This document shows, one piece after another, positions 12,001 through 18,000 of a stretch of DNA of 64,000 nt. This DNA comes from Cyclobacteriaceae bacterium (GTDB lineage: Bacteria; Bacteroidota; Bacteroidia; Cytophagales; Cyclobacteriaceae). Position numbers: made by a program. Location of the stretch: NCBI GenBank assembly GCA_035303945.1, contig DATGQZ010000015.1, forward strand, positions 70,100-134,099, in the 5' to 3' direction. Numbering within the stretch: the first letter of the stretch is position 1; each line of letters begins with the position of its first letter.

Positions 12001-15000
12001 ACATTAGAAATTTGACCCTTTTTTCGAAGTCACTCCCTCCCAGCAAAAACAAAGCGGTCTCTCCTGTGGGCAAAAATCCCCTGAATTGTTTTCCCCGAGC
12101 ACCTCCAATTTGTGGAAAATCCCCCGATTGGGCCAGATTTTCCTGGATTATGCGGTCAAAAAAATCGGGTTGAACATGAGGTGCCAAGGCGAGGACCAAC
12201 AAAAATGTCTCTTCGTAGTTGAGCTTGTTCCCCTCAATAAACTTAGAAAGTGCAGCATCACTATTGTCTATCGAAGTGAACCTTGGACTTGGATTTTTAT
12301 CAAGTTTCTTTTCACCGTTCAAAAGGTTTTTGATTTGGGTGGTGATGATAACCGCAAGTTGATCTAAGGCTGCCGTTAATACATGTAAATTTTTAGTATT
12401 GTAGCCGGTCATTCGACGAAAAGTTTTACGGTTTTTTCAAGGGTCAATGCCGCTTTACCCCATTGTTCGAGTTCGCCGTTTGGCCAAAGAATCAATAAGC
12501 TGTCATTAAAAGCACAAATGGAAGAAGGTTGGACACCCGAACGGCCGACGGGCAGCCTTTCTGGAGCCAACCGGACACCTTCACTGTTAGAAAAAAATAT
12601 TTTGTTATTGACTACGGAAAGTTGAATCGGTACAGGTTCGTCCTCGTTAAAATTTAGAACCAAATCAAAATTTTGTGTGCTTGGGTCATATTGCCATAAA
12701 CCCTTTTGGCTTCCTAGTAAAACCTTTCCACCTATTCTGGTCATCGCCGTAACTGGTCCACCCGGATATATCAGACGACTTAGTTTTTTATTCTTAAAGA
12801 AGGAAAGCGATTCAGGTTTATCTTTTTCCGTAAACAACAACCAATTTTCTCCGGCACATAAGTGACTGATCCGGCCTATTGTTCCTATGTTAAGCTGCTG
12901 TGGTTGTCCACCAGGTTCAAATTTCACAATTTTTTCGGGTAACAATTGAACATAGTCATTGTTGGGATGCGAAGTATTTGATGTATCTTTATCGGCACCT
13001 GCAATCCATAGGGTGTCCCCGAAAGCAGCTATGGCACTGGCTTTTCCTGTAAAAACCGGAATTTCAGTTTCGGCTTCTCTATTGTCGGCAGCCCATGTTT
13101 TAAGTGTAGGAAGCCATTGTCCGATGGTGGCGACTTTTTCATTTATCGCAACACAAAGGATTCTCCCTAACCCACTATCTTCGATAATCGGGGGCTTCGT
13201 CAAATTTTTGCTCCAGCCAAACAACCCCTCCAGGTCGGCCAGAAATATTTGTTCATCTACCGCGGCCAACAAAACAGGCACTGTTTTAAATTTCATGTCA
13301 TTTTGGATTATATGCGGATATCGTTGGACAATATCGTCTCGGACAGCCGTTTCCGAAGCTTGATTACATTGAGCGGTAGTAATCCAAAGGCAAATAAAAA
13401 GAATGGATTTAGTGATCTTATTATTGTCCAAGTCCTTTTTTACCTATTTCCATAAGAAGGCTGCCCCTGATAGTTGATAGTTGGGCATCTGTGAGTTGGT
13501 CGATGCCGGGCCCTGTTATGTTTCGGATGTTGCCACCTGCCATCAGGTTGTCGGGATCGCGCGAATGGTCCAGTCCAAGCACATGACCTACCTCGTGAGG
13601 GAATGTATCCTGTGCCCTGCTGGCCGTGTTGATGACAACAGAAAGATGGTCATCGGGTAAATTCCCCAAGGAACTATCCAGTGCTTCTCCCCGTGAGCTG
13701 GTCATATCAGGTACCCAATACCCAGTCAATCTACCTTTCACCCTGTTGTGCTTGATGAGTTCCAATTCTTCTTTTGTAGCATTAGGCCCAGTGAATTCAT
13801 CCAATATCAGGTCATTTCCAATGATTTTTCTCGTCTTTTTTTCCTCGATATCCGTCCTGTTACCCTTTTCAATTTCAATGTTATGGGGATTGTAAATTTC
13901 ATTTGCTCGTCGGAAATCTGCATCCACCGTGTCGGAGGCAGGTTTAAGCACTGTTACTGGAATAACAACCTCTCTCGTGAGATTGGCAGCGGTATGGAGC
14001 ATTTCGGCCAGACTCAGCTTGCCAAACATCGCAATGAAACTACCGTTGGTGATGGCAACTTTAAGAGCGACCCTAAATTCATCATTGTTCAACCGGAAAA
14101 GGAGGCTTCTAGCCTGTTTTGCTTCATCTTTTGTCATGCCTGCACCTTTTTCCAAAAGATTTTTCAGCATCTCCAAAGTACTTCCCTTTTCAGGGGGCAA
14201 TGGTGCCGGGCCCGGAGAGATACTTAGGTATAAATCAAGCGTACTCATGGTATTGGCGCCAATTACTCCGTCTTTGCTGAGTCCGTGTGCTTCCTGAAAA
14301 GCAATTACAGCCTTTTTAGTCTCGCTGCCAAATTGGCCATCAGCACCGAAATTCTTCAATGGATGTCCGGAATCGATAAGGCCATGCTGAATCCGCATGA
14401 CCTCGTCCCCTGAATCTCCTGTTTTCAAAAATCTTTTACCGTTCAATACTTCATCGAGCACAGGGTCACCTTTAAAACGGGGAGATTTCATCTTTTTGAC
14501 AGCGTCAGGTAAAGGCTGCCGCTGAATGGATTGTTGCTGTCCGGCATTTTGCTGCACCACATGCGTCAGTTCATGTGCTAAGAGCCGTTTGCCTGTCGTA
14601 CTTTCGGGGTGATATTTTCCGGAATTGAAGTATACATCCTTACCATGAGTGAAGGCTTGTGCACCAAGTTCTTTGTTCATTTGTACCGCCTCTGAATCCG
14701 TGTGGATGCTTACATGGCTGAAGTCTACCCCAAAAGCTGACTCCATTTCAGCATTTGTTTTACTAGATAATGACTTACCAGAGCCCGCTCTTTCGCTGAT
14801 GCGGTTGCTTAGGGGCTTTCCGGAGGTATGGCTTACACCATCGTTTTTCCTTTGTACTGTTCCTTCCACTTCCTCTTCTTCACCTTTCATTTGAACTTCC
14901 TCCTTCTCTTCTTTCATCTGCACGTTTTCTTCCTCCTCTTGTATTTGCATGGCATCTTCTCCCTCTTCCACCATTTGAACAGATTCTTGCTCCTTCATTT

Positions 15001-18000
15001 GCAGTGAGTTGCCCTCTAATTCAGCTTTGCGCTGTACTTTCATTTGGGTAGGTTTTAGACTTCCTGGCTGGACTTTGGATATTTTTTCGGAATTTTTCTT
15101 TCCAATCCGGTTAGGGTTACCGCTTGTCAGCCGATCGGCCACCGCATCTGCTTCCCGCTCGTATTGATCGTTGGGCTGACTGATTTGGAATTTGGCTTGG
15201 AAGAAGGGCTGTTGCACTTTGGAAGATGGGTTGACATCCAATTTTTTGGAGAAAAAAGGACCGCTTTTTTCATCTGAAATATTTGGGTTTCGGTGCCTGC
15301 GGGATTTTTTGGTACTGCGTTGCATGCTTGTAGGACTTAGGAGTGGGAGGGTAATCAGAGTAATAGTTCTTGGGCCAGTAGCTGGTAATCCGAAGCGCCA
15401 TTCGACCTTTTGTCAACTTGGAAAGTATCCAGGCCCGCTTCCTGGGATTTAGCCAAGGCCATGTTTGTGCGTATTCCAGAGGAATTTATTTCTGTGTTAA
15501 TTGTTTTTTTAGCGCTTGATTTGTTATAGTTGGAATAGCATGTATAATGAAAATCTAATTTCATGGTATACATCACACCTATTCTTCTTCTCTATCTACT
15601 TCGAGTGAAAGACTTGGAAGAGCCACTTCTTTTTCCCAATCATTTCATAGTAGATATTCAAGGTTTTAATTTTTTTGCAGCTGCGTGAACGAAGAATTAA
15701 CAAGCCTGTTCGACACCTCTAACGTTCCAGTAATGCTTCCGTCACGAGATCAATAATGCTGTCGAGTTGCTGATCGGCAGCGCCGGAAACCGCGGCTGCT
15801 TCCGGAACCGGATCATTTTCACTTCGCCGTTGACCATTCGTTTCCTTGCATCCCTTTTCCACAGTGATCCACTCGACTTCAATTTCATGATTGGTTCGCC
15901 CAACAGCAGATTCGCGTAGTGTTTCAAGTGCACTTGTAACACTGCTCACCACTTCGGAAGCGAGTGCTTCGCCGCCAGCAATGTCCCCTCCCTCATATAA
16001 CCGTCTTGCTTGCTCGGTTTTAGCGGGCACCTGGGCGTCCATCATGTCAGCTTCAAACCGCGCGCTATAGACATTATCCTGCGCGTTTTTACCTTCTGCC
16101 GCGCCACGGTAGATCATAATCGTGATCATGCCTGCGTCGAAACGTGCTAATACACGGCGCGCTCGCTCGGTTAGCCCCACCGCCAGTCGAAGGCTTCGTG
16201 CTGTGGCAAAGGGAATAATGTGCTCTGATTGAGTATGGTGGATCAATGGTCCTGTTCTGTTACGTGGAGGTTGCGATCCATGCGTTCCCACCCTGCCAAT
16301 ACCTGGCGCACTTGTTTTTGGAGCGGGGCATTTCTCTTTTTTACATACATCCGGATCAATATTATCCTTTACTGCCGTCTGCACAATCCCATCTTCAGAA
16401 CCGGAAACAGCTGACAAAGCAATGGTTTCATTGCCGAGGTTTGAGGCCTTGATTGCTGCAGATTCGTTTTTAGGTTTTTCGGTTGATTGCTTTTCTCCAG
16501 TTATAGCCTCTAAAAAAGACCAATCTGTAACGGTGTCTTCAAATTTAGCTGCTAGCGGCAGTTCTGCTGGCGCAGGGGCGGGAGGAGCAGGACGGGGAGG
16601 CCGTAATGGTACAACAGGCGCTGGTGCCGGGGCGGGTGCTGGCGCCGGTGGTTGAGCAGGCGTTTCTACCGTCGCTGGTTGTGGAACTGACTTAGGAGAA
16701 CCCTTTAATACACTTGCAATTAAACTAACCAATTCTGCCAGGAGCGACATTAATACCTGCAGCACTAAAGCAACAGCCATCGTTATAAAGCTGCTTACAC
16801 AATTCGAGATGTCCACCTGGCGCTTTTCACAAGTCTGACGCGCGGTATATAAGCGGACCAAATTAACAACAACAGTGCTACTTTCAGCAAGAAGGTAAGA
16901 AGCCATCAGTGCTTCCGCGACAGTCGCCATTGTTGCCAGTCCGGCTCCAGCGCCGGCTAAAAGACCCGGTATCACACCTACTTCGGCTGCTGCAATCCCA
17001 CCTAGAACAGCTTCTACCACGACGACAATAATCGTAATATATCCAATTAGAAGTCCTGCGACATGATTGAGGGTTCGCCATAACGATAAGGGGAATTCCA
17101 ATAAGATCAAAAAATTGGACCAGATATCATGAAGGCTACCTATTGGGTCATCAAAGAAATTGCGGGGTGCATAAAGGCTGCTCACGGTAGTCGCCCAGTG
17201 ATCATTCCATAGATCGCTGAATTCCTTACAAATTGCTTCAATCGTAGCCGGCGGCCAAAATGAATTCACTACTGTTTGCCACAACATTTCCTTAATATTC
17301 AAGCCATCCCAAAACTTTCCAAGGTAATATTGAATTCCCTTTCCAACCTCATCCAATGATGCTGTATCCCTAGCATCACCATCTGCTACTTGTCTTTGGA
17401 TGCTTCCATTGGCAATTGCCGGACTAGCGTTGCCTGGGTAGTTTTCGCGGGCCATCTGGTTTCCTTTCTCGGTCGCTTGAGGGGGAACCTCTGTATTTAG
17501 TTTGGCGGCAATCTGATCAAGAAAGGGCTGAATAGTTCCGCGTGGATCCGCAAAAAATTTCATTACATAATCATACGCCTCTTTTAGGTCTCTTACCATT
17601 TTTATTACGCCCTCAATGCCGAAAGCAATTACATTATCTACAAATGATCTTATCCCGGCTAATATGTCCTGCACGCTAGTCATCAAACGTTGCCAAAGGT
17701 CTGTCCAAAAGGTGGAAACCTGGATCCATAAAGACTTAAGGCCGTTAAAAAGAGATCGAACTTCCGCTTTTATGAAATCCGGAACCAAGTCAAATGCCGC
17801 ATTGTTAAACAATCCCTCGATTGTATTAAAGATACCATCAACGAAACCGGAAACGGTGTTCCAGATCCCTTGCCCGATTTGCAATATGCCATTAACAACG
17901 GCATTAACCCCTTCCCACAGCGCATTCGCACCGGATTTTAGCATACTCCAGGCACTTCCAAGAATGTCGGCGCTCATTGCTGACAACGCGGATATGAGCA

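Follow-up and report, generated by a model that had tools for sequence, protein, structure and literature searches.

A Cgo1-type cargo with a predicted wall-binding metzincin warhead and a candidate immunity partner in an AlgoCIS-like operon of a Cyclobacteriaceae bacterium

DUF4157 is known as a toxin carrier of extracellular contractile injection systems (eCIS) (Geller et al. 2021, PMC8213781). In AlgoCIS of Algoriphagus machipongonensis the tube lumen is filled with two DUF4157 cargos, Cgo1 (ALPR1_12695, 498 aa) and Cgo2 (1228 aa), and Cgo1 has a second HExxH motif in its C-terminal domain (CTD) (Xu et al. 2022, PMC8894135). Loading of the Cgo proteins depends on their disordered N-terminal region (NTD) but not on DUF4157 or the CTD (preprint 10.64898/2026.05.27.728243). 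A peptidoglycan (PG)-binding domain is carried by 68 predicted eCIS toxins, and 'DUF4157,PG_binding_1' architectures occur in the examined part of the corresponding dataset (Danov et al. 2024, PMC11297309). Periplasm-acting metallopeptidases are also delivered by type VI secretion systems (T6SS), where VgrG2b C-ter/PA0261 and Tpe1/Tpi1 (Tpe-Tpi) pair such an effector with periplasmic or lipoprotein immunity proteins (Wood et al. 2019, PMC6899460). Here we describe a 634-aa cargo protein and its 340-aa partner, which are encoded by a complete AlgoCIS-like eCIS operon in 64,000 nucleotides of contig DATGQZ010000015.1 of a Cyclobacteriaceae bacterium (this whole stretch is referred to as the window).

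The cargo protein resembles Cgo1 in several respects. Both stem from the family Cyclobacteriaceae and have the same operon position, with the AlgoCIS order of tape measure, long cargo and short cargo also found in the window, and both combine a disordered NTD, DUF4157 and a CTD with a second HExxH, with lumen loading predicted in our case. In Cgo1, however, the core leads straight to the CTD, without PG-binding domain or helical bundle (400 of the 498 residues compared). The Tpe-Tpi systems share a zinc metallopeptidase effector of a contractile machine and an adjacent downstream gene for a periplasmic or lipoprotein immunity protein, although the analogy is functional only: the Tpe effectors are fused to a T6SS spike and lack a PG-binding domain, whereas a candidate eCIS lumen cargo is seen here, and their immunity proteins are small compared to a propeller of ~300 aa. 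As for the eCIS-associated toxins (EATs), a predicted metzincin warhead with a conserved partner was not found described in the eCIS toxin papers examined. The examined part of the dataset of Danov et al. (2024, PMC11297309) contains no Reprolysin or Peptidase_M10 annotation, and the junction peptide of the family was not found in the examined part of its supplement.

We consider it rather probable that the protein is a lumen-loaded payload of AlgoCIS type, consisting of a carrier and a wall-anchored metzincin warhead for the bacterial envelope, and that its partner confers immunity. The gene, publicly annotated only as 'DUF4157 domain-containing protein' of a Cyclobacteriaceae metagenome-assembled genome (MAG), is divided as follows.

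13421..15325, minus strand: whole gene with ATG start, 634-aa eCIS cargo protein (HLT06655.1)
14771..15325, minus strand: NTD, aa 1-185, from composition and homology to the neighbouring cargo and Cgo1
14540..14770, minus strand: eCIS_core/DUF4157 (PF13699), aa 186-262, Pfam E=3e-31
14561-14575, minus strand: first HExxH motif (HELTH), aa 251-255, inside eCIS_core
14414..14539, minus strand: junction, aa 263-304; similarity to other cargos stops at '...IQRQP'
14237..14413, minus strand: PG_binding_1, aa 305-363, from Pfam (E=6.6e-13), PDB sequence matches and fold matches
13982..14179, minus strand: five-helix bundle, aa ~383-448, from the AlphaFold2 model and the family alignment
13424..13981, minus strand: predicted metzincin-fold catalytic domain, aa 449-634, from the AlphaFold2 model and Foldseek
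13565..13597, minus strand: zinc-binding motif HEVGHVLGLDH, aa 577-587, with invariant H, E, H and H
13541..13543, minus strand: invariant Met595 of the Met-turn, 8 residues past the third His

A first-pass annotation of the window had described this open reading frame (ORF) as a DUF4157 toxin of an eCIS with a PG-binding module, a metzincin signature and hence two distinct HExxH motifs. The ORF was recovered on the minus strand and all peptides quoted for it are present, including AHELTHVVQQ at aa 250-259, NLM at aa 593-595, and the PG-binding strings GDSGDEVMRIQHGLIDSGHPL at aa 303 and DGQFGSETKK...GANTM at aa 329. Both HExxH motifs, the DUF4157 block, the PG_binding_1-like module, which has an endolysin-type fold, and the eCIS context (cap, sheath, tubes, spike, fibre, CIS_TMP and AAA ATPase, all on the same strand) were confirmed as well. 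Its view that a PG-binding module is unexpected on an eCIS cargo is at odds with the 68 toxins already counted, and DUF4157, although present, appears to be the carrier only and not the toxic part.

Indeed, the carrier is delimited by comparison with the other cargos. Against the NTD and eCIS_core of the neighbouring 1186-aa cargo the protein shows 38% identity (E=3e-43), with the similarity ending past the core and the C-terminal part of the neighbour being unrelated. Against the NTD and core of Cgo1, of which the first 400 of 498 residues were taken from the dataset of Danov et al. (2024), the identity is 43% over 242 aa (E=7e-45), and similarity stops at the 'VQRK/IQRQ' junction. On these alignments the DUF4157 part is a carrier common to the neighbouring cargo and Cgo1 and no part of the warhead, and the 634-aa protein is best described as a Cgo1-type carrier with a different warhead. 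Homology of the warhead itself to Cgo1 was considered and rejected on the same 400 of 498 residues, as 131 CTD residues compared with the effector gave an hhalign probability of 1.6%. Judged from its composition, the NTD (aa 1-185) is polar and charged (41% QNSTGP, 17% DE, 17% KR), with repeated acidic runs between which VQRK, LQMK and VQMK are found; by analogy with Cgo1 and Cgo2 it is presumed to be the loading sequence. The NTDs of both cargos in the window (14540-15325 and 18350-19279, both minus strand) and of Cgo1 have in common that acidic runs are punctuated by the motif phi-Q-[RMTS]-[KQ], such as VQRK, LQMK and VQMK, and 'EEEEAVQSQ' occurs five times in Cgo1. A motif of this type (IQRQ, IQRW, VQRK) sits exactly at the end of the similarity between the cargos; possibly it is processed or recognised by the DUF4157 HExxH domain or by the loader.

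For the catalytic domain, sequence profiles alone were insufficient. While eCIS_core and PG_binding_1 scored far above the curated Pfam cut-offs, the protein stays below all Pfam metzincin cut-offs: Peptidase_M10 reached 23.7 bits (cut-off 24) and covers aa 575-596 only (profile positions 112-133 of 159), and Reprolysin_5 reached 17.1 bits (cut-off 27, E=0.0066, aa 475-591). A Pfam scan, as suggested by the first-pass annotation, thus bears out DUF4157 and PG_binding_1 and leaves Peptidase_M10 and Reprolysin_5 sub-threshold. In NCBIfam, PG-binding enzymes and metzincin motifs were matched only in part and with scores far below threshold. Searches of PDB sequences, both with the single sequence and with the family profile, matched the catalytic domain only over the 20-residue zinc motif; since nothing but this motif and the PG-binding domain was matched, the metzincin fold had to come from a model.

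With aa 373-634 as query, a homolog search yielded 31 proteins, of which 30 belong closely to the family (50-64% identity). In their alignment HExxH, the third His and Met595 are invariant, and the Gly of the zinc motif is replaced by Asp in a few sequences. HExxH, the third His and the Met are also invariant or at least 90% conserved in 39 more distant representatives. Because of the invariance among the 31 homologs HEVGHVLGLDH, followed by NLM 8 residues later, is no chance match. The AlphaFold2 model of aa 285-634, built on the 31-homolog alignment, has a mean predicted local distance difference test (pLDDT) score of 92.4 and a predicted TM-score (pTM) of 0.88. It shows a beta-sheet with helix A, an active-site helix bearing HExxH, a Met-turn and a C-terminal helix; in the numbering of the modelled fragment the strands comprise 165-176, 199-209, 250-254, 262-265 and 278-282 and the helices 183-197, 290-298 (with HExxH) and 329-336. 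A Foldseek search against the PDB returned metzincin catalytic domains as the first 33 matches, headed by MPII (4on1) and profragilysin-3 (B. fragilis), ecarin, snake-venom adamalysins and ADAM33. These top matches have E values of ~1e-5 to 1e-4 and TM-scores of ~0.5 on targets of ~200 aa, and among viral proteins a small metzincin from Maribacter phage Colly_1 matches the fold best. As far as a model can decide, structure prediction and fold search establish the metzincin domain, which by fold is nearest to the fragilysin/adamalysin type and not to the matrixins. For this domain we predict zinc-dependent endopeptidase activity.

Fragilysin/MPII (M10C) and adamalysin (M12B) share HExxHxxGxxH and the Met-turn with the window protein, but the identity is only 10-17%, and the protein, having no cysteine at all, forms no disulfides and lacks the adamalysin Asp as well as a fragilysin-type prodomain. 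Assignment to M12B (adamalysin/reprolysin) was rejected on the Reprolysin_5 score below cut-off, Ser588 in place of Asp after the third His, and the absence of Cys. Membership in the matrixins (M10A) was likewise rejected, as the M10 profile is below threshold, Cys is absent and no conserved Ser follows the third His. This position (Ser588 here) varies across the family, and profiles of Reprolysin_5/4/3 match weakly to 14-19 of its 39 representatives. In an exhaustive profile search of 1.84 billion representatives only ~38 clusters at 50% identity matched the catalytic region. By these sequence comparisons the domain belongs to a small, separate, unnamed family.

The PG-binding domain is well defined. 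It reached 49.1 bits with PG_binding_1 of Pfam (cut-off 23), and PDB sequence matches were obtained with 4lpq, 5tv7, 5nm7 and 3bkh. Superposition on endolysin wall-binding domains gave a root-mean-square deviation (rmsd) of 0.8-1.5 Å at 38-45% identity (5tv7: 1.5 Å, 42%; phage lysins: 0.8 Å, 39-45%). A conserved N-terminal extension 'KSPRF(K/R)GD..LE.VL' of the module follows the '...IQRQP' junction. Judged from the modelled structure it is a genuine domain of the wall-binding type, for which binding to the sacculus is predicted. Three unrelated wall-binding folds (PG_binding_1, LysM and OmpA) occupy the same position in the family, and therefore wall binding appears to be the selected function. 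The five-helix bundle that follows is kept in the family, with L409 and F417 invariant, and may belong to the protease as an N-terminal subdomain or else confer latency.

The first-pass annotation had left two options for this module, a bacterial wall target or use as a propeptide as in matrixins. The second corresponds to a eukaryote-directed protease with matrixin-style latency, in which the PG_binding_1 fold, alone or together with the helical bundle, serves as a prodomain that keeps the enzyme inactive until release, and in which the enzyme would cleave surface or matrix proteins of the host as fragilysin and the adamalysins do. We regard this as unlikely, even though it can draw on a number of observations. 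In matrix metalloproteinases (MMPs), too, a metzincin is combined with a prodomain resembling PG_binding_1, the spacing of the motif HExGHxLGLxHS...LM agrees, so that HEVGHVLGLDHSRDPDNLM looks matrixin-like, and the M10 score of 23.7 bits is close to the cut-off. Furthermore, the top fold matches are toxins acting on eukaryotes, and the three-domain model is compact (pTM 0.88). The characterised eCIS MAC, PVC and Afp act on eukaryotes as well. Nevertheless, the PG-binding domain of the window protein is of the bacterial endolysin type, given its 38-45% identity to wall-binding domains of endolysins, and is exchanged for LysM or OmpA in relatives, and the residue past the third His is not conserved as Ser. 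A cysteine-switch zymogen (PRCGxPD) was rejected because the protein does not contain any cysteine. In the PG-binding domain and the linker with the helical bundle neither Cys nor His reaches 80% conservation, this level being attained by E401 (88%) and D415 (86%) only; this disfavours the matrixin-type propeptide. A co-inherited partner with export signals would also make little sense if no self-protection were needed. Thus, on account of the LysM and OmpA swaps, the endolysin likeness, the lack of Cys and the co-inherited gene with a lipoprotein signal, we favour a periplasm-acting antibacterial effector with an immunity partner, and with it the bacterial wall as target of the module, over the propeptide.

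The gene of this partner overlaps the stop codon of the cargo gene.

12409..13431, minus strand: 340-aa partner with TTG start, candidate immunity protein, 11-nt overlap with the toxin stop

The product is composed of a lipoprotein-type signal (…ILFICLWITTAQC), a tether of ~20 residues and an all-beta propeller. The corresponding NCBI entry HLT06654.1 (295 aa, 'hypothetical protein') starts at M46 and is thus devoid of the signal; the long ORF and its signal are conserved in an 82%-identical homolog (P0033). In an AlphaFold2 model, which rests on a shallow alignment of 5 similar sequences, residues 1-44 are disordered and followed by a beta-propeller of 28 strands (mean pLDDT 80, with most of the folded part at ~90; pTM 0.78), and fold matches are to generic WD40-type propellers. 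No match to the partner was found in Pfam, PADLOC or PHROG, and a second and a third homolog search yielded only four close relatives.

A partner homolog is located directly 3' of the metzincin gene in each of the first three homolog loci (BLASTP E=2e-10, 3e-25 and 4e-11), two of which have no eCIS structural gene within 10 kb. By tblastn it was found directly downstream at 9 of 11 distinct loci, orphan cassettes included. In four loci (L001, L006, L007 and L008) the partner start overlaps the toxin stop by 4 nt. A hydrophobic signal ending in Cys and preceded by a basic n-region is present at 8 of 9 partner N-termini, for example LTLALGC in L004. Where the toxin domain is 59-70% identical, the partner of the same loci is only 19-30% identical; as seen from these sequences, such an asymmetry in divergence is typical of immunity proteins. 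Because of co-inheritance, translational coupling, export signals and fast divergence we regard the partner as the probable immunity protein to a periplasm-acting effector. By analogy, it would most likely block the protease and thereby protect the producer and its kin.

From these data we infer the following course of events. The first unit (aa 1-262, loading sequence and eCIS_core) would guide the protein into the tube lumen by way of the AAA+ ATPase, with the NTD as main loading determinant and the core as an accessory, and contraction would then deliver the cargo across the outer membrane of a bacterial target. The second unit (aa ~285-634), comprising PG-binding domain, helical bundle and metzincin-fold zinc endopeptidase, would act as warhead: the PG-binding domain would dock the enzyme on the sacculus, and the metzincin would cleave an envelope substrate, either a wall peptide or a wall-associated protein. 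In the producer and its kin the translationally coupled lipoprotein propeller, which should face the periplasm, would bind and block the protease. The substrate is the weakest step of this scheme. To our knowledge metzincins are protein endopeptidases, none of them being an established peptidoglycan hydrolase, and therefore a wall-associated protein is as likely a substrate as the stem peptide.

The lack of such a precedent is one of several points that speak against a periplasm-acting antibacterial effector. The nearest structural relatives, i.e. fragilysin, snake-venom and ADAM proteases, act on surface and matrix proteins of eukaryotes. The PG-binding domain or the bundle may cover the active-site cleft and so confer latency, with D415 or a similar residue as a conceivable aspartate switch; the pTM of 0.88 suggests a compact arrangement of the three modelled domains. 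The lipoprotein-type signals were judged by eye, and the propeller fold of the partner is generic and uninformative on inhibition. The partner is missing at one locus (L011), and an unrelated ORF takes its place at another (L013). Toxicity of Cgo1 in E. coli is independent of both HExxH motifs and of periplasmic targeting, and no target organism of AlgoCIS, bacterial or eukaryotic, has been found (PMC8894135). At L013, which belongs to an Enhygromyxa MAG, the toxin is a divergent fusion of core and metzincin with 38% identity in the catalytic domain, and is followed at 3742-4575 (plus strand) by the unrelated ORF, encoding 277 aa, rich in Cys and with a lipoprotein-like signal; this may represent a non-homologous replacement of the immunity function.

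The Cgo1 result also raises the question whether the metzincin site is the source of toxicity at all. If it is not, the partner could be a chaperone, adaptor or receptor and not an inhibitor. We nevertheless rate this as rather improbable. Zinc ligands, catalytic Glu and Met-turn are invariant across phyla, which indicates selection on catalysis, and a lipoprotein signal would be out of place on a loading chaperone of the cytoplasm. As the CTD of Cgo1 is unrelated to the metzincin warhead, its toxicity result does not transfer.

Wall-binding modules may also recognise polymers of N-acetylglucosamine, i.e. chitin or chitosan of fungi, algae and protists, so that the metzincin would attack proteins of the walls of these organisms. 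LysM domains bind chitin as well as peptidoglycan, and a gene of the chitosanase family GH46 is adjacent to the locus. For EAT14, which consists of DUF4157, LysM and a transglutaminase, toxicity to both yeast and E. coli was observed (PMC11297309). Against this reading, a partner presumed to face the periplasm implies that a bacterium has to protect itself, and the tail fibre resembles phage fibres, which is weak evidence as it holds for the C-terminal part only. We consider a eukaryotic wall very unlikely to be the target, since OmpA-family and PG_binding_1 modules are, as far as we know, peptidoglycan-specific. Equally remote appears a lysis enzyme which, perhaps together with the GH46 and PG_binding_1 protein encoded at 9731-10693, weakens the producer's own wall for particle release, with the partner regulating the timing: the wall-binding domain, the second PG_binding_1 enzyme and the release of eCIS particles by cell lysis (Geller et al. 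2021, PMC8213781) would fit, but the cargo-type NTD and core are shared with the lumen cargo Cgo1, export signal and holin partner are lacking, orphan copies of the cassette are found apart from eCIS genes, and the GH46 gene is not conserved in related loci.

The distribution of the predicted effector domains points to modularity. In all 31 of the closest CTD homologs eCIS_core is absent; these proteins of ~390-450 aa consist of a polar leader, PG_binding_1 (LysM in 3), the helical bundle and the metzincin. Among the 39 representatives eCIS_core was found in 18, PG_binding_1 in 10, LysM in 4 and OmpA in 1. The full fusion followed by partner and ATPase was detected in Aquimarina sp. MMG016, two Prolixibacteraceae MAGs and one Bacteroidota MAG, in a survey that combined a scan of species-representative genomes, which did not return the source genome and Algoriphagus, with tblastn. 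Fusions of core and metzincin in which no PG-binding domain was detectable are present in the cyanobacterium Limnofasciculus and the myxobacterium Enhygromyxa, and Aquiflexum balticum has a homolog of 621 aa with 64% identity. The N-termini of the toxins are polar, unlike Sec signals. By sequence, the module of PG-binding domain and metzincin is a mobile cassette, found both together with eCIS_core and in its absence. Somewhat more tentatively, the warhead may be a portable unit, plugged onto a DUF4157 carrier in some genomes and travelling as free-standing cargo with nothing but a leader in others.

Some observations were made on individual members. The polar leader of members lacking eCIS_core (P0002-P0024; L003 10001-10200) often contains '[LV]LQLQ..GN.AV..L', which suggests that these proteins are still cargo of a contractile system encoded elsewhere. 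At L001 a gene with eCIS_core is located 10 kb upstream of the cassette. At L009, from a Prolixibacteraceae nanopore MAG, the toxin gene is split by a frameshift (10255-10340) and the partner gene has an in-frame stop (11087-12076), probably long-read assembly errors, and P0012 (249 aa) is a truncated gene call resulting from this frameshift. L009 was left out of the protein alignments; its partner N-terminus was kept among the nine judged for export signals.

We found no description of a distinct fragilysin/adamalysin-like metzincin family for this C-terminal domain, of the three-way interchange of wall modules, of a cassette with and without carrier, or of the conserved lipoprotein propeller partner. 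This adds a new effector family and a candidate immunity family to a type of system already known. It fills in one effector family and leaves the present view of eCIS biology as it was. In a field where few eCIS toxins have been traced to a site of action and natural targets of AlgoCIS-type eCIS are still being sought, exchangeable wall-binding modules and an antidote-like partner with export signals make antibacterial, periplasmic delivery concretely testable. If the warhead is a portable unit of this kind, particles of AlgoCIS type would serve Cyclobacteriaceae and other Bacteroidota as weapons against other bacteria, with delivery into the periplasm, and the enzymes attacking the bacterial envelope from within would then include metzincins. 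The cassette is present in the culturable relatives Aquimarina sp. MMG016 and Aquiflexum balticum DSM 16537, and for the engineering of eCIS payloads it is useful that carrier and warhead are cleanly separated at the post-core junction.

The remaining genes of the operon, which is located entirely on the minus strand, encode a Pvc16-type cap, the sheath, two gp19-type tubes, CIS_tube, a VgrG-like spike, baseplate-size proteins, a fibre with a Peptidase_S74 chaperone, two giant ORFs and the tape measure (CIS_TMP). The tape measure is followed by the 1186-aa cargo, the 634-aa cargo, the 340-aa partner and the AAA ATPase, and the same order of cargo, partner and ATPase is found in L006, L007 and L009.

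19562..21355, minus strand: CIS tape-measure protein (E=1.1e-111), structural end of the operon, upstream of the cargo genes
15719..19279, minus strand: second cargo of 1186 aa in the position of Cgo2, from carrier homology
11060..12412, minus strand: AAA+ ATPase of Alg15/Pvc15 type, start overlapping the partner stop by 4 nt

By analogy, the ATPase is presumed to be the cargo loader. A PADLOC scan of toxin, partner and second cargo gave no matches, and a scan of 9-20 kb for sigma-70 promoters and terminators found fewer sites than in shuffled sequences and was thus uninformative. Beyond the carrier, the second cargo has a long hydrophobic stretch rich in Gly and Ala, a PAPAPAP linker and a C-terminal domain of ~200 aa with no profile match. 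The giant ORFs lie between tail fibre and tape measure: that at 25639-32256 (minus strand, 2205 aa) matches only DUF1508, and that at 21362-25633 (minus strand, 1423 aa) has no match. The GH46 and PG_binding_1 protein (9731-10693, minus strand, 320 aa; GH46, chitosanase/lysozyme-like, E=1.4e-16) has no N-terminal signal, and its gene, located 366 nt downstream of the AAA ATPase gene, has no homolog in related loci. The protein could serve particle release through lysis, or it could be another effector. The two cargo genes are separated by a gap of 393 nt (15326-15718), in contrast to the overlapping genes downstream, and this gap holds an ORF of 73 aa at 15355-15576 (minus strand).

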